Positions 8,590 through 51,505 are shown, counted from the stretch's first letter. The stretch: 56,005 bases of DNA from Gemmatimonadota bacterium (GCA_039587215.1 JBDHIW010000002.1:8546-64550), one strand, 5' to 3'. A program made the numbers and translations. The notes: generated by a model not told the origin, from the letters alone.

Positions 8590-8629
8590 ACGCGGGGCGG
8601 TCACGAGGTGGCCGCCCCGCGTTTTCGTT
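8590..8629 (+). terminator. Rho-independent terminator
   Basis: 15-bp stem ACGCGGGGCGGTCAC-GAG-GTGGCCGCCCCGCGT (one G-U) followed by TTTCGTT, 30 nt after the permease stop. Confidence 0.85.
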
Positions 8630-8657
8630 CCCCGGGTGCGCGGCTATCTTCTGGCGC

Positions 8658-10522
8658 ATGGCGGACCGGTATGACGTGATCGTGATCGGGGGCGGGCACG
8701 CGGGCATCGAAGCGGCGTGCGCGGCAAGTCGCATGGGAGCCAGCACGCTCGTGCTCACGGCGAACCTCGAGACCATCGGGCAGATGTCCTGCAATCCGGC
8801 CATCGGCGGCATCGCCAAGGGGACGGTGGTGCGGGAGGTCGATGCGCTGGGTGGGATCATGGGCCGGGCGACCGATCGGTCGACGCTGCAGTTCCGGATG
8901 CTGAACCGCTCGAAGGGGGCTGCGGTCTGGTCGCCGCGGGCTCAGTGCGACCGCGGTCTGTACCGTCGTGCCGCGCGGTGGCTCCTGGAGTCACAACCGA
9001 ACGTGGTCACGGTGCAGGGGACGGTGGTGCGTCTGCGTCTGGACGGTGTGCGGGTGACGGGTGTCGAGACGACCGACGGACGCTGCTACGAGGCTGCAGC
9101 TGTCGTCCTCACCGCTGGGACGTTCTTGCGCGGACGCATTCACATCGGAACCACGACGCGCGTCGACGCCGGTCGGGCCGGCGATCCGCCGGCCGTCGCC
9201 ATCGCAGAGCAGCTGGAAGACCTGGGTCTCGAGCCGCGGCGCTTCAAGACAGGAACGCCACCGCGGATCGATGGGCGGTCGGTGGACTTCTCCGCGTTGG
9301 AGCGCCAGGACGGGGAGTGGCCTGACTACCGGTTCTCGGTGTACGAGCGAGCCTCGCGCCCCGAGGAGCGTCCCTGCTGGATCGCGTGGTCGGGCAGCGA
9401 GCTGCACACGATCGTCGAGCGTCACCTCGAGGAGTCGGCGCTCTACGGGGGCGAGATCTCCGGACGCGGTCCGCGATACTGCCCATCGATCGAAGACAAG
9501 ATCGTGCGGTTTCCGAACGCCGAGCGCCACCAGATCTTCCTCGAGCCCGAAGGGCTCGACACGCACGAACTCTACGTCAACGGCTTGTCTACTTCCCTCC
9601 CGGTTGACGTTCAAGTCGTTATGCTGCAAGCAGTTACGGGTTTGTCAACCGTAAGGATGACACGACCGGGGTACGCGATCGAGTACGACTACTTCCCGCC
9701 GACGCAGCTGGCCCCGTGGCTCGAGACGCGGACCGTCGAGGGACTCTTCCTCGCCGGGCAGGTCAACGGATCGACAGGATACGAGGAGGCGGCGGCGCAG
9801 GGGATCGTTGCAGGGATCAACGCTGCGCGCAGAGGAAGGGGAGAGGAGCCCGTCGTACTGGGACGTGATGACGCATATGTCGGCGTGCTCGTCGACGACT
9901 TGATCACAAAGGGTGTCGACGAGCCGTATCGGCTGTTCACGTCGCGGGCCGAGTATCGGCTGCTGCTGCGGCAGGACAATGCGGGCTTGGCCCGCTCGCC
10001 TCGGAACTGGGTCTGCTTACCGATGAGGAGCGTCGTACCCTGGACGAACGGACCGATTCCACTGAGAAACTGGCGCAGTTCGTCAACGAGACATGGGTGG
10101 ACCGGGATGCCGCAAACAGCCTGCTTAGCGTGGCCGGCGGAGCGCTCGTCGATTCTCCGCGTCTGCTCGGTGACCTGGTCAAGCGGCCGGAGCTCCGCCT
10201 CCGCGATCTGCTGAGTGCGCTCGGGCACGACGGGGTGGTCGACTCGGAGGTTCTGTTGAGCGTCGAGACGGAGGCGAAGTACGAGGGCTATTTGGAGCGC
10301 GAAAGGGAGATGGCGAGACGAATGAGCGAGCTGGCGCACTTCCGGCTCCCGGCCGAGCTGCCGTATCTCTCGTTCGCGAGCCTGAGCACTGAGGCGCGTC
10401 AGAAGCTCGACACGGTCCGGCCGGATTCACTGGCTCGAGCAGGAAGAATCCCGGGCATCTCGCCATCGGATCTCCAGAACCTCGTTGTCGAGGTTCTCCG
10501 ACACGGACGCACTGCGGCGTAG
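8658..10522 (+). pseudogene. mnmG: tRNA uridine-5-carboxymethylaminomethyl modification enzyme MnmG (GidA), frameshifted near 9984 (real lesion or assembly error)
   Basis: GGGHAG, MSCNPAIGG, RFKTGTPPR, GPRYCPSIEDK, AGQVNGSTGYEEAAAQG, EPYRLFTSRAEYRLLLRQDNA. The rest (LGPLASELGLL...KYEGY...LSTEARQKL...RIPGISPSD) continues in another frame to TAG 10522. Confidence 0.9.
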
Positions 10523-10571
10523 GCCGCCAACCCAACCGAACGCAACCCTACCAGCCACAGCACCGGGATGG

Positions 10572-10587
10572 TGTTTCACGTGAAACA
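10572..10587. promoter_or_regulatory. parS: parS centromere site 1
   Basis: Perfect TGTTTCACGTGAAACA; palindrome extends to 22 bp (10569-10590); directly upstream of parAB. Confidence 0.96.
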
Positions 10588-10607
10588 CCACGGGAAGCAC
10601 AGCGCGG

Positions 10608-10623
10608 TGTTTCACGTGAAACA
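10608..10623. promoter_or_regulatory. parS: parS centromere site 2
   Basis: Second perfect TGTTTCACGTGAAACA, starting 36 bp after the first. Confidence 0.96.
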
Positions 10624-10683
10624 CGGGAATAGCGCTTCGGACCGCGCACCCCTATATTCCCTGCCCCCTCGAGAATCCAGGTG

Positions 10684-10740
10684 TATTCCAGTTGTATATA
10701 TAATCTTGTAAATACTTGTAGTAAAAGGATTTATGGTACA
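10684..10740 (+). promoter_or_regulatory. AT-rich parAB promoter/leader region
   Basis: Strikingly AT-rich for this window; TATAAT at 10699-10704, AAAAGGA SD-like at 10723-10729, contains the dyad TAAAT-AC-TT-N7-AA-GG-ATTTA. Confidence 0.6.
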
Positions 10741-11562
10741 ATGACGCGGGTGATCGCGATCGCGAATCAGAAGGGTGGTGTCGGTAAGACGACGACCGCG
10801 GTGAACCTGGCCGCGTCGCTGGCGGCCGCGGAACAGCGGACGCTGCTCGTCGACGGCGACCCGCAGGCCAACGCGACGAGCGGTATCGGCCTGGATCGTG
10901 GCCAGATCGAGTCGTCCCTGTACGACACGCTCGTCAATGGCCTCCCGCTCAGTGCCGCGCTCGTGCGCAGCGTGAACTTCCCGCACCTCGATGTCGTGCC
11001 GTCGACGGAAGACCTGGTGGGTGCCGAGCTCGAACTGGTCAACCGGCCGCGACGCGAGTTCGTGATGCGCGAGGCCCTGGCTCCGCTGAGCGGTCACTAC
11101 GATTTCATCCTGATCGACTGCCCGCCGTCGCTCGGGCTCATCACGCTGAACATGCTCACGGGTGCCGACGCGCTGCTGATTCCGATTCAGTGCGAGTACT
11201 ACGCCCTGGAAGGTCTGTCGAAACTGTTGAACACCGTCCGACTCGTGCAGCAGAACTGCAACGCGGCGCTCGGGATCGACGGCGTGTTGCTGACGATGTA
11301 CGACGCCCGGCTCAATCTTTCCAAGCAGGTCGCCGGGGAGGCGAAGGAGTACTTCGGGTCGCAGGTCTACTCCACGGTCATTCCGCGAAATGTCCGCTTG
11401 GCCGAGGCGCCGAGCTTCGGCAAGCCGATTCTCCTGTATGACGTGCAGTCGGTGGGTGCGCAGACGTACCTCGCGCTGGCGCAGGAAGTGATTCGGCGGA
11501 CGGCGGAGGGCCAGCAAGGCGCCGGGGGCGTTCCGACCCTCGTCGGTGAGGAACTGCCATGA
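10741..11562 (+). CDS. parA: Chromosome partitioning ATPase ParA/Soj
   Basis: [59 protein letters not shown]. Confidence 0.97.
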
Positions 11563-12440
11563 GTGAATCGAAACGGCGATTGGGACGGGGACTCGAGGCG
11601 CTGTTGGGGCCGGCCCCCACCGTCGAGCGCGCGCGCGCATCGGGGCAGCTCAACGAGGTGTCGGTGGAGGCGATCCGCCCGAACCGCTTTCAGCCGCGGC
11701 GCACGTTCGACGACCAAGCGCTCAAGGAACTCGCGGAGTCGCTGGAGCGCGACGGGCTCCTGCAGCCCATCGTCGTCCGCAACGACGGTCCCGGACGCTT
11801 CGAGTTGATCGCCGGCGAGCGGCGCTTCCGCGCAGCGCAGAGCCTCGCATGGGAGCGGATCGGTGCCGTCGTGCGTGACGTGGACGACCGCACGATGCTC
11901 ACGCTGGCGCTGGTCGAGAATCTGCAGCGCGACGCCCTCTCACCGATCGAGGAAGCGCGTGGGTATCAGCGACTCATCGACGAGTTTGCCTCCACCCAGC
12001 GGCAGGTGGGCGAACTCGTCGGACGGGACCGTACCACGGTCGCCAACGCGCTGCGTCTCCTGACGCTGCCCGACGACGTGCAGGACCTCGTCCACGCGGG
12101 GAGCCTGTCGGCGGGGCACGCCCGTGCGCTCCTGCAGTTCGAGACCGCGGACGCCATCCGCAAGGCGGCACGCGCGATGATCGACGGCGGCATGTCGGTG
12201 CGCGAGGCCGAGACGCTCGCGCAGGCGACCACACGCGCGAAGGGTCGCGGCCAGCGAGGGGGGCGGCGCCCCGCGCCGGAAGTCCGCCGGCTCGAGGACG
12301 TCCTGCGTCGCCGTCTCCAAACGGACGTGTCGATCTCGCGCCGAGGGAAGGACAGCGGGCGAATCTCGGTGAACTTCTATTCGCACGATGATCTCGCGCG
12401 CGTGCTCGAGATCATCCTTGGCGAACCCTACGACGGATGA
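11559..12440 (+). CDS. parB: Chromosome partitioning protein ParB/Spo0J
   Basis: [10 protein letters not shown] ParA-stimulating peptide, [39 protein letters not shown]. Confidence 0.97.
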
Positions 12441-13231
12441 CCCGCCCGCCGCGCTCGCTCACGGTGGTGGTGCATCGCGACGGGGCCACGGAGTCCCGGT
12501 CGGTGCGCTTTCCGCTGTGGCTGGTGCGGCTGGCCGCCGTGGCGGCCGTCGCGTTCCTGGTTCTCGTGATCGTCGCGAGCGCACTGTACGCTCCCGTCGC
12601 GCGCACGGCCGCGCGCGTCCCGGGACTGGCCGGCGAGGTCGAGCGCCTGCGGGAAGAGAACGCGCAGGTGCGCGAGCTGGCCGGGCAACTCGCGGCGGTC
12701 GAGGCGAGCTACGATCAACTGCAGGAAATGCTCGGCGTCGATCTCGTGCCGAATCGCGCGCGGGTGGGTGCCGTGCCGGCCGTGGCCTATCCCATCCTCG
12801 CGAGCGCACCGGACGCGGCCGCCCACGATCCGACGATCCCGACGCGTCCCACACGGTGGCCGCTCGAGGAGCCCGGCATCGTGACGCGCGGACCGGTGGC
12901 GGCGAACGGAACGGCCGAGGCACACAGCGGTGTCGACGTCGCGGTCCCGGTCGGCACGCCGATACGTGCTGCGGGCGGCGGCGTCGTCGTCGAGGCCGGC
13001 CGTGACGACGAGTACGGTCTGTTCGTGCGGTTGCGGCACGTCGGCGACATCGAGTCGATGTACGGACACGCGTCGCGCCTGTTGGTCGCGCGCGGCGACA
13101 GTGTGACGACGGGTCAGGTCATCGCCCTGTCCGGGTCGACGGGCCGATCCACCGCACCACATCTGCATTTCGAGTTGTTTCGCGCCGGAGCGTCGATCGA
13201 CCCGAGAAACGTGATCATCGAGGAGTCGTAA
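12437..13231 (+). CDS. Membrane-anchored M23 family peptidoglycan endopeptidase
   Basis: Short N-terminal segment, TM helix, coiled coil, then HSGVD, MYGH, GSTGRSTAPHLHFE zinc motifs; ATGA overlap with parB. Confidence 0.92.
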   Translation: MTRPPRSLTVVVHRDGATESRSVRFPLWLVRLAAVAAVAFLVLVIVASALYAPVARTAARVPGLAGEVERLREENAQVRELAGQLAAVEASYDQLQEMLGVDLVPNRARVGAVPAVAYPILASAPDAAAHDPTIPTRPTRWPLEEPGIVTRGPVAANGTAEAHSGVDVAVPVGTPIRAAGGGVVVEAGRDDEYGLFVRLRHVGDIESMYGHASRLLVARGDSVTTGQVIALSGSTGRSTAPHLHFELFRAGASIDPRNVIIEES

Positions 13232-13672
13232 ATGGCAGCATTCACGAGCGGCGGCGAGCGTGGCCGCGAACAGTCACGAGAGGGCAGCCTCTCGATCGTC
13301 GGCGCCGGCATGCGCATCGTCGGCGAGATGGCGACCGACGGCGTACTGAAGGTCGAGGGTGTGATTCACGGGAGCATCCGGGCAACGCAGCAGGTCGTCG
13401 TGGCGCGGGGCGGGTCCATCGTGGGAGACGTGTACACGCGCGAGGCCATCGTCGGCGGCACCGTCTCGGGGTCCATCTACGCCGATGCCCGGGTGGAGAT
13501 TCAGGAGCAGGCCGAGGTGCACGGCGACATTGCGACCAAGACCCTGGTCGTTCAGGAGGACGGCGAGGTGAACGGGCACGTCCGCATGGGCGAGGTGAAG
13601 GCGATGGAGCTCGGTGCATCGGTGGCCGAGCCCAAGCCGTCGGCGGAGCGCATCGCCTCCGCGGTGCAGTAG
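13232..13672 (+). CDS. Bactofilin (polymer-forming cytoskeletal protein)
   Basis: Beta-helix repeats LSIVGAGMRIVGEM...LKVEGVIHGSI...IVGDV...VSGSI...VHGDI...VNGHV; ATG immediately follows the M23 stop. Confidence 0.93.
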   Translation: MAAFTSGGERGREQSREGSLSIVGAGMRIVGEMATDGVLKVEGVIHGSIRATQQVVVARGGSIVGDVYTREAIVGGTVSGSIYADARVEIQEQAEVHGDIATKTLVVQEDGEVNGHVRMGEVKAMELGASVAEPKPSAERIASAVQ

Positions 13673-13686
13673 CCGCGGCGGCGCCC

Positions 13687-14445
13687 GTGTCGGTCTCTAG
13701 AAACACCCTGGTCGAGTATCTCGACGCGTATCTCCGCGTCGAGGCGATCCCGGACTATCCCCATGCGCTGAACGGCTTGCAGGTGGAAGGTGCTCCGGAC
13801 GTATCCCGACTCGCGGTCGCGGTCGACGCCTGCCAGGCCACGATCGAGGGTGCGGCAGCGATGGATGCCGACCTCCTGCTCGTGCACCACGGGCTCTTCT
13901 GGGGCGGTCTCGAGCCCGTGGTAGGGCGGCACGCGGCGCGGCTCGGCCGCCTGTTGGGTTCGGCAACCTCGTTGTACGCCGCGCACATCCCACTGGATCT
14001 GCATCCCGAGGTGGGCAACAACGCGGTGCTGGCATCGCACCTCGGCCTCGCGTCACCCGAACCCTTCGGAGCGTTCAACGGCATCCCAGTCGGTCTCGTG
14101 GGGGCCCTTGCAGTCGAACGGGAAGCGCTCGCGAACACCCTGGCCAATCTCCTGGGGGCCACGCCGCAGGTTCTGGCGCACGGTCCCGAGCGTACCGCCC
14201 GGGTCGCGATCATCACGGGGGGTGCTGGGAACATGATCGCGAGCGCCCGCGCGGCAGGGGCCGATACGTTCATCACGGGCGAGGGCGCCCACCACACGTT
14301 CTTCGACGCGGAAGAGTGGGGCATGAACGTCATCTACGCCGGCCACTACGCGACGGAGACCGTGGGTGTGCGAGCCCTGGCCGAGCACCTCGCGGAACGC
14401 TTCGAGCTTCCATGGGAGTTCATCGACCACCCGACCGGTCTGTGA
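13687..14445 (+). CDS. Nif3-like dinuclear metal centre hexameric protein (DUF34)
   Basis: NGLQVEG, LLVHHGLFW, AHIPLDLHPEVGNN, ITGE, AGHYATE. Confidence 0.93.
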   Translation: MSVSRNTLVEYLDAYLRVEAIPDYPHALNGLQVEGAPDVSRLAVAVDACQATIEGAAAMDADLLLVHHGLFWGGLEPVVGRHAARLGRLLGSATSLYAAHIPLDLHPEVGNNAVLASHLGLASPEPFGAFNGIPVGLVGALAVEREALANTLANLLGATPQVLAHGPERTARVAIITGGAGNMIASARAAGADTFITGEGAHHTFFDAEEWGMNVIYAGHYATETVGVRALAEHLAERFELPWEFIDHPTGL

Positions 14446-15608
14446 TGCGCGCGGCGGGTCGGCGGGTCCTGGCGGCCCTGGCGCTCGCGATCGTCGGGGT
14501 GGCAGGGCGGAGCGACGCGCAGACGGACGCACTCGGAACGGCGCCCGCCGACTCGCTGGTCACACCACCGGACCCCGTGTTGGCCCGTCCCCTGCGTGTC
14601 TGCGGCAGTGGGGACCTCATGCTGGGCTCCGACCTCGATACCACCTGGGTCACGGCGGCGGCGCGCCGCGTCGGGCGCGCCGTTCCGGCCTTGCCGTCGG
14701 CGCCGGCGATGGTGGCCCCGCTCGTCCCGCTGCTGGCCGACGCGGACATCGTGCTCGTCAACGTGGAAGGTGCCATTGGGGAGGGGCCGGTCCCCCGCAA
14801 GTGCCGGCCTGGCTCCCGCTTCTGCTACGCGTTCCGTCAGCCGCCGGACCGGGCGGCCGCCATTGCCGGGTTGAGCGCGCGCGGGGTCGTCGTGGGCAAC
14901 GTGGCCAACAACCACGCCATGGACGCCGGAGCGGCGGGCTTTGCAGAAACCCGGCAGATGCTGGAGACCGCGGGGGTCGGGGTGACCGGGGCCGACACGA
15001 TCGCCACCGCGGTCGGCATCGGGTCCGATACCATCGGTGTTCTGGGATTTGCAACGGCGCAGGCCGGTCCCGATCCGCGTGACCTCGCGGCCGTGCGCAG
15101 GCACGTGCGGCGGGCGGCGGACCGGTTCGGGCGGGTGGTCGTGACCATGCACATGGGCGCCGAGGGCGCGAGTGCGCAGCGCACCGGCGACAGCACCGAG
15201 ATGTATCTGGGAGAGAATCGTGGCAACGTCGTCGCGTTCGCGCGGGCAGCGGCGGAGTCGGGTGCCGCATTCGTGATCGGCCACGGACCGCACGTGCTCC
15301 GCGCAGCGGAGTGGTGGCAGGGCAGTCTCCTCGTGTACTCGCTCGGCAACCTCCTCACCTACGGTCCGTTCAACATGAACCCGCCGCGTCACCACGGCGG
15401 GTTTGCCTGCGCCGTGATCGCCCCCGACGCATCCGTCTCGGACGGTGAGATCCGCTCCACACTCCAGCGGCGTCCCGGCATCGTGTCCGTAGACCCCGCG
15501 CACGGGGCCGGTGGGGTGGTCGACTCGCTGAGCCGGTTGGACTTTGGGGAGACGGGCGTGCGGATCGAGGCGGGTCAAATTCTCGACCCGGAGGGCGACG
15601 GCCGCTAA
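14445..15608 (+). CDS. CapA/PGA_cap family metallophosphatase-fold exported protein
   Basis: TGATG overlap with Nif3; signal-like N-terminus; GDLMLG, VNVEG, ANNHAMD, MHMGAE, IGHGPHV, YSLGN. Confidence 0.88.
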   Translation: MRAAGRRVLAALALAIVGVAGRSDAQTDALGTAPADSLVTPPDPVLARPLRVCGSGDLMLGSDLDTTWVTAAARRVGRAVPALPSAPAMVAPLVPLLADADIVLVNVEGAIGEGPVPRKCRPGSRFCYAFRQPPDRAAAIAGLSARGVVVGNVANNHAMDAGAAGFAETRQMLETAGVGVTGADTIATAVGIGSDTIGVLGFATAQAGPDPRDLAAVRRHVRRAADRFGRVVVTMHMGAEGASAQRTGDSTEMYLGENRGNVVAFARAAAESGAAFVIGHGPHVLRAAEWWQGSLLVYSLGNLLTYGPFNMNPPRHHGGFACAVIAPDASVSDGEIRSTLQRRPGIVSVDPAHGAGGVVDSLSRLDFGETGVRIEAGQILDPEGDGR

Positions 15609-15912
15609 CCCTCGGTGCGCAGCGGGATGACGGAGCGGACGTCCAGCGTCTCGGCGCTCCGGGGTGTCACTCGGCAGAAGCACTCCGATCCGATCACGCG
15701 TTTCACCCCGAGCACTTCGGTTTCGTCGATGCTCGGGACCTCGTGGTAGACGACTTCCAGCGTCCGTCCCCCGACGATGCGGTAGGAAGCCGGCCGCCCG
15801 GCGAGGCGACCGTGCGGGTCCACGCCGGGCAGCCCTGCCGTGAGCCGGGCGCCACCTCGGCGAGCCGCGCGCGGAGCGCAGGATCGGTCGCCGTGGTGGA
15901 CGGGTCAGGCAT
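15605..15912 (-). pseudogene. Hypothetical protein of about 102 aa split by an apparent 1-nt deletion near 15849
   Basis: MPDPSTTATDPALRARLAEVA (ATG overlaps the queG stop) joins RLTAGLPGVDPHGRLAGRPASYRIVGGRTLEVVY...PLRTEG if one G is restored (GCG [G]CC CGG). Confidence 0.55.
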
Positions 15913-16855
15913 CGGTCGGGCGCCGCGCACCGCGTACGGCGGCGGCGTTTCGCGTGAGGCCCTCGAGGCCGGGCCGTTCCAGCGGTGTCTGCCCGTAGCG
16001 AGCCGTGAACTCGCCCTCGGTCAACGCATCCAGTTCCTCGAGGTCGAGCCATGCGAGTGCAGGATCCAGCGCGAACGCTCCATCGCCGGTCACCGCAAAT
16101 CGTTCGTTCCAGGGACACACGTCCTGACAGACGTCGCATCCGAACACCCAATCGTGGAGTGCCGGCGGCTCGGCGGCGTCGAACGAACCACGGTGTTCGA
16201 TCGTGAGGTACGAGATGCAGCGTCGTGCGTCCAGGAGGCGGGCCTCCGGGAACGCGTCCGTCGGACACGCGTCGAGACAGCGACGGCAGGTGCCGCAGCG
16301 GTCGGCGGTGAAGGGCGCGTCGAGCGCGAGGTCGAGGTCGGTGAGCACGGTGGCGATGAAGAAGAACGACCCAGCGCGGGGCGCGATGAGCATCGTGTTC
16401 TTCCCGATCCATCCGAGGCCGGCACGCTGCGCCAGTTCGCGTTCGGGGACCGGACCGGCATCCACGAAGGGGCGCGCGATCGTGTCCGCCGCCCCGAGGG
16501 CGATGATGGCGTCCGCCAGGGCGCGCAGCGGGCCGGCGAGGCTCGTGTGGTAGTCCTCGCCGCGGGCGTATCTTGCGACGTGGCCCCACGAACCGTCGGG
16601 TGCCGGCGGGTCGGGGTGGTAGTAGTTCTTGAGGACCACGACCGCGCGGGTGGCGCCGGGGACGATCGTTTCGGGATGGAGGCGGCGGTCGGCCTGGCGG
16701 TGCATGTACCGCATGGTGCCGGCCATCCCCTCGCCGAGCCAGCGCCTGAGTTCGGCGGCGTGCGGCGTCGGCTCGAGATCGGTGATGCCCACGGCGTCGA
16801 ACCCGAGGGTCAGCGCCTGGGCTTTGACCTCCCGTGCGCGGTCGTGCGCCGTCAC
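15905..16855 (-). CDS. queG: Epoxyqueuosine reductase QueG
   Basis: GTG start overlapping upstream stop; LGFDAVGI, MRYMHR, ARYARGEDYH, FVDAGPVPERELA, GWIGKNT, CGTCRRCLDACPT, RCISYLTIE, FGCDVCQDVCPWN. Confidence 0.95.
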   Translation of the reverse strand: MTAHDRAREVKAQALTLGFDAVGITDLEPTPHAAELRRWLGEGMAGTMRYMHRQADRRLHPETIVPGATRAVVVLKNYYHPDPPAPDGSWGHVARYARGEDYHTSLAGPLRALADAIIALGAADTIARPFVDAGPVPERELAQRAGLGWIGKNTMLIAPRAGSFFFIATVLTDLDLALDAPFTADRCGTCRRCLDACPTDAFPEARLLDARRCISYLTIEHRGSFDAAEPPALHDWVFGCDVCQDVCPWNERFAVTGDGAFALDPALAWLDLEELDALTEGEFTARYGQTPLERPGLEGLTRNAAAVRGARRPTDA

Positions 16856-17109
16856 TGGCGCAGGATGGCGCGCCGCCAGCGGGCGAAACGGATGACGTCG
16901 TCGAGCGGCGGCACGGCATCTTCGCTGCCGTAGGCCGTGTACATGCGCCAGCGGCGGTACTCCCGCGGGGGCAGGGGCAGGAAAGGCGGGCGGCGGTACC
17001 AGTGGCTGGCCCGGAATGCCCAGAGCGTGAGCAGGAGATCGACAGCCAGACGAGGACGGACGATCGCGCGGGCTGCGAGCGCGACGAACAGTCGAAACCA
17101 ACTCATCAT
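16852..17109 (-). CDS. Hypothetical small basic/aromatic protein
   Basis: 85 aa, WYRRPPFLPLPPREYRRWRMYTAYG; stop overlaps the queG GTG, suggesting translational coupling. Confidence 0.75.
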   Translation of the reverse strand: MMSWFRLFVALAARAIVRPRLAVDLLLTLWAFRASHWYRRPPFLPLPPREYRRWRMYTAYGSEDAVPPLDDVIRFARWRRAILRQ

Positions 17110-17124
17110 CGTAGGTGGACGCGC

Positions 17125-17370
17125 ATGCATTGGACCATTCAGAGCGTCTCACTCGTCGGAGCGACGTTTATTGTCGGCGCGTACGTCGCGCTCCAGCGCA
17201 AGTGGTGGACGCGTCACGGCACGGCCTATCTCGTGTTCAACCTTATTGGATCCCTGCTGCTGCTGCTAGTGGCGATCGTCGACCGACGGCTCGGGTTCAT
17301 CGTGCTGGAGGTCGTGTGGGCCGCCGTGAGCGCGGACTCGCTGGTTCGCCGGAGGTCCCGAGCGACGTGA
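17125..17370 (+). CDS. Small 3-TM membrane protein (CBU_0592-like)
   Basis: 81 aa, SLVGATFIVGAY...YLVFNLIGSLLL...GFIVLEVVWAAVS. Confidence 0.78.
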   Translation: MHWTIQSVSLVGATFIVGAYVALQRKWWTRHGTAYLVFNLIGSLLLLLVAIVDRRLGFIVLEVVWAAVSADSLVRRRSRAT

Positions 17371-50839: not shown

Positions 50840-51423
50840 CCGGCCGACTGCTCGGCAATGGCGAGCATGCCGAGCCATGACGCCATGTACGCCGAGCGAA
50901 TTTCCCCAGGGTCCGCGCCCGATCCAAGCGCCGCACCCAGCCCAACGATGGTCGACGCCAGCCACCAGCCTACCTCGCCCGGCAGAAGTCTCGCGTCCAG
51001 TCCTCCGCGTTCGGCAAGCGAGTTGTAGGCGATTCCCAGCGCGGTAGCGAAGGCAGCAACCCCGCTACTGTCCCTTTGGTCAGTACTGAACAGCAGCGAG
51101 GACCAACCACCTGGGCTGCCATTTACTGACTCGGCGGTCAATAAATCCCATGTTGCGTCCATAGCATCGGGGATCGTGGCCGCTCGATCGAGGCAATCCG
51201 TCCAGCTCGAGATCCGTTCCGCGCTCATCCGATCAAGCGCAGCGTCGATGAGCGCCTGTTTGTTCCCGAAGTGATAAGTGATGAGACCCTTCGCACAGCC
51301 GGCGTGCTCGGCCACCGCGTCCACGGTGATCCGGTCGGCAGGAACCGTCTTGAGGAGCTCAGCGGCGGCGGCCGTCAGGAGATCTCGGGACTCCTCCTTG
51401 GTTCGTCGGGCGCGTTTGGCCAT
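50836..51423 (-). CDS. TetR/AcrR family transcriptional regulator
   Basis: RRTKEESRDLL.AAA.LL...ITVDAVAEHAGCAKGLITYHFGNKQAL; GGAG SD upstream of ATG 51423. Confidence 0.88.
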   Translation of the reverse strand: MAKRARRTKEESRDLLTAAAAELLKTVPADRITVDAVAEHAGCAKGLITYHFGNKQALIDAALDRMSAERISSWTDCLDRAATIPDAMDATWDLLTAESVNGSPGGWSSLLFSTDQRDSSGVAAFATALGIAYNSLAERGGLDARLLPGEVGWWLASTIVGLGAALGSGADPGEIRSAYMASWLGMLAIAEQSAG

Positions 51424-51439
51424 GTTATGACTCCGTTTA

Positions 51440-51505
51440 TTGACCCATTGTACAGTATATGAAATGGGCCAACGAAACACAACGTACTATACTGCTGGTC
51501 AGTAT
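51440..51505. promoter_or_regulatory. Divergent promoter region with two inverted repeats
   Basis: TTGACCCATT-N13-AATGGGCCAA (51440-51472, one mismatch) and ATACTG-N5-CAGTAT (51489-51505); TATACT hexamers on both strands. Confidence 0.6.

Follow-up and report, generated by a model that had tools for sequence, protein, structure and literature searches.

In Hyphomonas neptunium, as in Rhodospirillum rubrum, the gene for the bactofilin BacA adjoins that for LmdC, a bitopic M23 endopeptidase with a short cytoplasmic N-terminus bearing a β-hairpin, one transmembrane (TM) helix, a coiled coil on the periplasmic side and a catalytic M23 domain (Pohl et al. 2024, PMC10945521). The hairpin is required for BacA binding and recruitment, and bactofilin-M23 adjacency extends to 226 species (PMC10945521). 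Bactofilin genes also occur behind parAB. In Myxococcus xanthus, parA-parB-bacM-MXAN_7474 are co-transcribed near the origin, BacM and MXAN_7474 are dispensable for segregation (Iniesta 2014, PMC3899335), and BacM serves cell shape only (Lin et al. 2017, PMC5703909). In Bdellovibrio bacteriovorus, bd3906-bd3905-bd3904 correspond to parA-parB-bactofilin and are co-transcribed as judged by reverse transcription PCR (PMC7186360, PMC10547168), and a link to ParB is proposed by the authors themselves (PMC7186360). Here we describe a locus in which both partnerships coincide. It lies in a 56,005-nucleotide stretch of DNA (JBDHIW010000002.1:8546-64550, hereafter the window, in whose coordinates all positions are given) from an uncultured Gemmatimonadales metagenome-assembled genome (MAG; GCA_039587215.1, 2.84 Mb, 302 contigs, 87% complete), where the plus strand between 10.5 and 15.6 kb carries, co-oriented and uninterrupted, two parS sites, parA, parB, an M23 endopeptidase gene, a bactofilin gene and genes of the Nif3 and CapA families.

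The locus resembles BacA-LmdC in that a bactofilin gene adjoins that of a bitopic M23 endopeptidase, but here the pair is enclosed in a parAB operon whose start and stop codons overlap. It shares with the M. xanthus operon a bactofilin gene predicted to be co-transcribed with parAB, and differs in that the fourth gene there encodes a lipoprotein and no M23 protein is reported in the accessible text (PMC3899335), whereas here an LmdC-like peptidase gene stands between parB and the bactofilin gene. The Bdellovibrio bactofilin gene follows parB directly, with no M23 gene described in what was accessible of those papers (PMC7186360, PMC10547168). In Helicobacter pylori the M23 peptidases Csd1 and Csd2 are encoded beside the cell-shaping bactofilin CcmA (PMC10945521, 10.1101/2025.04.09.647816). 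Unlike the pair described here, that system has no known link to parAB. Its peptidases have another domain organisation and it has another partner set. The accessible literature on bactofilins with parAB, M23 or Gemmatimonas yielded no account of an M23 gene in a parAB operon, and the 12 text supplementary files of PMC10945521 contain no word beginning 'Gemmatimonas', 'Gemmatimonadetes', 'Gemmatirosa' or 'Longimicrobium'. The pairing of a bactofilin gene with parAB is known, as is its pairing with the gene of an LmdC-type M23 peptidase; the variant that joins the two in one operon appears to be new. We favour, at a probability of roughly 0.6, a single centromere-proximal transcription unit that runs from the two parS sites and an AT-rich promoter region through parA and parB to the LmdC-like peptidase gene and the bactofilin gene, a unit whose value would lie in co-expression, with no need for contact between the segregation proteins and the scaffold.

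Gene order and junctions from parS to the bactofilin gene

Upstream of the parA ATG, at a distance of 118-169 bp, are the two parS sites, at 10572..10587 and 10608..10623 (no strand), which match the 16-bp parS palindrome TGTTNCACGTGAAACA. The first is a perfect palindrome, TGTTTCACGTGAAACA, with 0 mismatches, and the second is a copy of it 36 bp downstream. By chance 0.02 matches are expected per window, four or more strand-matches arose in 0/100 shuffles, and a scan of the whole MAG (2.84 Mb, 87% complete) allowing up to 1 mismatch returned these two sites only; the M23 gene begins 1.8 kb downstream of them. Following them, parA occupies 10741..11562 (plus strand, 273 aa; AAA_31 2.6e-63, CbiA 1.1e-27), its likely start being the ATG at 10741 in preference to the GTG at 10681 called by the open reading frame (ORF) finder, because the AAA_31 match starts at residue 2 counted from 10741. 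The translation contains KGGVGKTT, which we take to be the deviant Walker A ATPase motif of ParA. The product of parB (11559..12440, plus strand, 293 aa) has ParB_N (CTPase fold), HTH_ParB (helix-turn-helix) and ParB_C (C-terminal dimerisation) domains, all above Pfam cut-offs, and contains GERRFRAA, presumably a motif characteristic of ParB; it is the only protein with a ParB_N match in the 87%-complete MAG. The parS-parA-parB identity assigned in the original prediction, which had been made without database searches, is secured by the two perfect sites and the Pfam ParA and ParB domains.

The M23 endopeptidase gene (12437..13231, plus strand, 264 aa; Peptidase_M23, PF01551, 1.5e-30) and the bactofilin gene (13232..13672, plus strand, 146 aa; Bactofilin, PF04519, 4.1e-22) follow with no intervening DNA, and the family assignments of all six proteins of the string hold in a Pfam scan. 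The parA stop TGA (11560-11562) overlaps the parB ATG (11559) as ATGA, the same overlap is formed by the parB stop (12438-12440) and the M23 ATG (12437), and the M23 stop TAA (13229-13231) is succeeded at a gap of 0 nt by the bactofilin ATG at 13232.

Directly upstream of parA, the plus-strand stretch 10684..10733 has 22% GC within a region of 69% GC, and across 10400-15900 only this pre-parA stretch contains 50-nt segments below 50% GC. It is, on base composition, likely to hold the operon promoter. A scan of the plus strand from 10000 to 16500 for sigma-70-type consensus promoters and for terminators gave no match, in the AT-rich stretch as elsewhere, so that internal promoters of this type, which would have decoupled the genes, were not matched inside the gene string. 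The 56-kb window has one other strongly AT-rich cluster, at 51415-51465 (GC no higher than 36% over 50 nt), making two in total. The DnaA-box scan of the window gave 1 match with one mismatch against 1.97 expected, with no sign of oriC, and because this is at chance level we do not call the operon origin-adjacent on its own evidence.

The peptidase and the bactofilin

Across 42 aligned homologues, drawn from ten families, residues H163, D167, H211, H242 and H244 of the peptidase are invariant (42/42). We equate them with the HxxxD, H and HxH motifs of M23 enzymes, with zinc-binding and catalytic roles as in LytM. The M23 domain is predicted to be catalytically competent, as all catalytic and zinc-binding residues are kept. 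An AlphaFold2 model computed from the same alignment (mean predicted local distance difference test score 85) places β-strands at aa 7-12 and 21-26, forming a cytoplasmic β-hairpin (aa 7-26), followed by a long helix at aa 27-59 that includes a hydrophobic segment (the TM helix, from aa 27), a second helix at aa 61-98 where the coiled coil ends, a disordered linker at aa 105-130 and the M23 fold at aa 140-264. As modelled, the protein has the architecture of LmdC: short cytoplasmic N-terminus with β-hairpin, one TM helix, periplasmic coiled coil and M23 domain. Because of this architecture the M23-bactofilin pair is read as a wall-remodelling module of the BacA-LmdC type, which agrees with the earlier claim that it belongs to a known kind (PMC10945521).

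The likeness to LmdC does not extend to a recognised family in the N-terminal part: residues 1-140 match no Pfam family at E up to 1 in any member of the alignment (0/42), with only chance-level coiled-coil matches and no DUF5930. The Atlas feature search returned unnamed clusters from Gemmatimonadota and Acidobacteriota at 0.92; a cluster bearing DUF5930 came only at 0.80 and is no more than a lead. A complex prediction for two bactofilins with M23 residues 1-34, made with 42-row alignments, gave a score of 0.01 and a mark of 0.32, which speaks neither for nor against binding.

The bactofilin domain spans aa 21-117 and is flanked by short tails, the C-terminal one of 29 residues (aa 118-146), and the family profile matches the solved bactofilins 2n3d (Caulobacter crescentus BacA) and 6ria. 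The original prediction called the scaffold membrane-anchored. The consensus for bactofilin membrane targeting is given as MFSKKKK (PMC12448750), with hydrophobic residues at the very N-terminus and lysines after them; the window protein begins MAAFTSGGERGRE, in which the Phe is kept and the lysines of the consensus are not. An M-x-x-F start, near to that consensus, is present in at least 64 of 79 relatives, some of which approach it further (e.g. MGIFGKKKS in L013 and L014), and the N-termini in families f6, f7 and f10-f12 are unrelated. Membrane anchoring is plausible for the order, where M-x-x-F is common, but weak for the window protein, in which the lysines are absent. Of 3514 candidates for longer, fused forms of the bactofilin 0 reached E <= 1e-5, and neither a ParB-bactofilin nor an M23-bactofilin fusion appeared, a negative that counts as weak evidence. 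In the family f10 genomes sampled (L038, L041, L043, L044 and L047) a second and more divergent bactofilin, with 25-29% identity to that of the window, occupies an unrelated locus with no ParB or M23 gene nearby.

Conservation, natural variants and competing readings

Conservation of the gene order was examined by tblastn at two depths. Thirty related genomes of the order were each represented by the locus around their best bactofilin match, and ParB-M23-bactofilin was found in 22 of these 30 loci. Of the remainder, L005 ends at a contig edge and shows M23-bactofilin-Nif3, three loci of family f2 (L003, L012 and L015) have ParB-bactofilin with no M23 match, three others of f2 (L004, L007 and L008) have a bactofilin-M23 pair with no ParB in the 3.3 kb covered, and L018 is a lone bactofilin paralogue. 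In the phylum 231 of 251 genomes gave a bactofilin match; the best 150 of 324 matches were used, and the tallies take in three unpublished genomes. Thirty genomes of families f4, f5, f6, f7, f9, f10, f11 and f12, with f8 left out, supplied a sample of 40 regions, each about 10 kb long. ParA-ParB-M23-bactofilin was present in 27 of these genomes, or 28 of 30 when G221 is included, in which a second bactofilin match lies by its coordinates about 0.9 kb downstream of parB. Extra bactofilin paralogues in this sample lie elsewhere, with no ParB or M23 nearby.

The junctions were compared in 80 Gemmatimonadota loci, which were picked by M23 similarity and are hence not an unbiased sample. The order ParB-M23-bactofilin holds in 79 (the exception, L086, has no bactofilin match), mnmG lies upstream in 68 and Nif3 downstream in 74. 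For these estimates a gene was taken to begin at the first start codon that is level with, or shortly precedes, the stop of the gene upstream. On this basis parA overlaps parB in 76/77 loci and parB overlaps the M23 gene in 77/80 (as ATGA in 74), while the M23-bactofilin gap is 20 nt or less in 79/79, most commonly -1, +1 or +2. From bactofilin to Nif3, in contrast, the median estimated gap is 232 nt and exceeds 100 nt in 64/73 loci. Because the overlaps are near-constant upstream of the bactofilin gene and the gap beyond it is wide, the conserved, translationally coupled unit is parA-parB-M23-bactofilin; Nif3 and CapA are placed outside it on account of this median and of the presence of CapA downstream in only 4/80 loci. 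Of the 11 families examined, 10 keep the four-gene order with intact M23, among them families from other classes of the phylum, and f2 shows it in modified form only. The synteny foreseen across the phylum is kept, both in order and in overlaps, for these four genes, and does not take in Nif3 or CapA.

The departures from this order are informative. In family f2 both the M23 and bactofilin genes are missing beside parB in 5/5 genomes examined (L152-L156), a bactofilin search of which gave no match in 4 and a weak match in 1. Nif3 comes directly after parB in L152 and L153, and in L154-L156, three complete genomes of one genus, a Bmp lipoprotein gene stands between the two. Nif3 stays near parAB in all five despite the missing pair. 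In L157 and L158 (f2), and independently in L070 (f4), the gene after parB encodes a protein that keeps the hairpin, TM helix and coiled coil and has no M23 domain (187 aa, L157:3387-3950; 151 aa, L158:4616-5071, minus strand; 123 aa, L070:4398-4769), and in all three the bactofilin gene comes next. An apparent LmdC-bactofilin fusion ORF in L070 was rejected, as translation stops after 123 residues. The non-catalytic N-terminal part of the peptidase would, to judge from these sequences, be worth keeping beside a bactofilin. The f2 loci L004, L007 and L008 carry complete pairs in the reverse order, bactofilin-M23, away from parB, the peptidase having its own hairpin-like N-terminus; these look like a relocated or paralogous module. 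Finally, in one f7 genus L061 (genome G212) and L064 (G111) have M23-bactofilin-Nif3 in one place and parB 30 kb off on the opposite strand or else on a different contig, and two further genomes of the genus have the block intact. From the f2 and f7 variants it follows that the M23 gene and the bactofilin gene disappear or change place as a pair, and that parAB is independent of both.

This pattern is in keeping with a co-expressed unit that joins two modules, for which the M. xanthus and Bdellovibrio operons are precedents, by analogy, for co-expression without a role in segregation. By extension from the BacA-LmdC work, the bactofilin would polymerise on the cytoplasmic face of the membrane and the polymer would recruit the peptidase through its N-terminal cytoplasmic β-hairpin, after which the periplasmic M23 domain could cut peptidoglycan cross-links locally and so shape growth, the poles or the division zone. 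Placing the pair within the parAB operon would give co-expression from the same promoter with a stoichiometry fixed by translational coupling, and might also confer origin-proximal gene dosage and timing; Nif3 and CapA would be appended in the genus of the window. Several points weigh against this interpretation. Co-transcription is predicted from spacing, and promoters within coding sequence are possible, the scan having covered the sigma-70 type. The predicted binding of hairpin to bactofilin, and the homology of the hairpin to that of characterised LmdC, are drawn respectively from analogy with BacA-LmdC and from modelled architecture, not sequence, and the bactofilin N-terminus would have to reach the membrane with no targeting lysines. 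Further, the overlaps are kept at very high frequency across 10 families, a linkage stronger than that of most functionally unrelated neighbours, which leaves room for a real tie to ParAB.

Such a tie was the core of the original prediction, in which the operon physically links centromere segregation to the scaffold and to local wall remodelling: the bactofilin, alone or via the N-terminal part of the peptidase, would position ParB-parS or ParA, so that segregation and remodelling are mechanically tied. The only documented bactofilin positioning of ParA and ParB is by BacNOP-PadC of Myxococcus (PMC5703909), the genes of which, unlike those here, lie outside the parAB operon, and which requires the ParB-like adaptor PadC, three co-assembling bactofilins and a long BacP tail (PMC5703909, PMC12448750). 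The near-fixed spacing and translational coupling of four genes phylum-wide would suit a contact of this kind, as would the position of the MAG's only two parS sites 1.8 kb upstream of the M23 gene, the recurrence of parAB-bactofilin co-transcription in Myxococcus (PMC3899335) and Bdellovibrio (PMC7186360), and the retention of hairpin, TM helix and coiled coil beside the bactofilin in L070, L157 and L158, which points to a non-catalytic scaffolding role. The phylum, moreover, is reported to have no Min, MipZ or PomZ and to bear unexplained polar spherical appendages (PMC11271474). Against this, the 87%-complete MAG encodes no PadC-like adaptor, there being no second protein with a ParB_N domain, and no co-assembling bactofilin paralogues, its single bactofilin having a tail with no lysine-rich motif of the type described for BacP (PMC12448750). 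The module has been lost, truncated or relocated with parAB kept, and BacM behind the M. xanthus parAB is dispensable for segregation and serves cell shape (PMC3899335, PMC5703909). The physical link is unsupported by these data, an obligate one is disfavoured, and we regard the reading as rather unlikely.

A frozen accident, in which an ancestral order of no selective meaning persists because overlapping start and stop codons hinder clean separation, could explain why the downstream part is fluid (Bmp lipoprotein, Nif3 or CapA according to lineage) and why the module was deleted or relocated several times with parAB retained, but neutral gene order rarely survives such distances, and four genes in order with an intact M23 in 10/11 families, other classes included, make this decidedly unlikely.

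A more speculative proposal, which we consider very doubtful, is that ParB, the membrane-inserted LmdC-like protein and the bactofilin share a single mRNA, transcribed under 2 kb away from the only parS sites, and that co-translational membrane insertion and local assembly tether ParB-parS to a bactofilin/LmdC patch. Retention of the hairpin, TM helix and coiled coil in three lineages in which the catalytic domain is gone would fit a tethering role. Were it true, the segregated origin itself would mark the site of wall remodelling, in a phylum that divides at 1/2, 1/3 or 1/4 of the cell length.

Under the favoured reading of co-expression the operon still offers an entry point to how Gemmatimonadota, a poorly studied phylum with no known spatial regulator, coordinate segregation with the growth of the wall, the choice of a division site or the shape of the poles. 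The natural variants are ready comparative controls: in some the module is lost, in others just its catalytic domain, and in others again the module has moved away from parAB.

Downstream and flanking genes

Beyond the bactofilin stop TAG (13670-13672) 14 nt lead to the GTG (13687) of a gene for a Nif3/YbgI-family dinuclear-metal protein (13687..14445, plus strand, 252 aa; DUF34_NIF3 9.7e-59), whose TIGR00486 score of 157.9 bits is above the NCBIfam cut-off for the YbgI/Nif3 equivalog. Its stop TGA (14443-14445) shares an A with the ATG at 14445 (TGATG) of the CapA/PGA_cap-family gene (14445..15608, plus strand; PGA_cap 4.6e-32), the product of which has an N-terminal segment resembling a signal peptide; the gene may instead start at an in-frame GTG, at 14442. 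With these, every junction claimed for the string (ATGA, ATGA, 0 nt, 14 nt and TGATG) is present in the sequence. The claim of one operon for all six genes stands in so far as the co-oriented string is gap-free and a single AT-rich region precedes parA, and falls short in that Nif3 and CapA are only local additions. Such tight packing of Nif3 and CapA is confined to the genus of the window and a few near relatives (L025, L028, L073, L074, L075 and L078), and in several lineages a gene for a Bmp/PnrA-like lipoprotein separates Nif3 from parB or from the bactofilin gene (identified by Pfam in L155, and by reading in L157 and L158). Nif3 and CapA are local passengers outside the conserved core. 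In the poly-gamma-glutamate CapBCA system CapA is encoded with CapB and CapC; the neighbours of CapA here, namely Nif3 and a convergent queG-like gene, include neither of them, the genome beyond the locus not having been searched for capB or capC.

The queG-like gene (15905-17152, minus strand) closes the co-oriented run. Between it and CapA a minus-strand ORF of 72 aa (15605-15823), with no Pfam match, reaches over the CapA stop with an overlap of 4 nt; it could be a small gene or a chance reading frame. At the other end, upstream of the parS sites, mnmG (gidA; 8625-10522) is split into two frames with a break near 9984. Three relatives have intact MnmG proteins, whose alignment follows frame 1 until about 9983 and frame 3 beginning at about 9986, so that the split is either a frameshift or an error of the MAG assembly.

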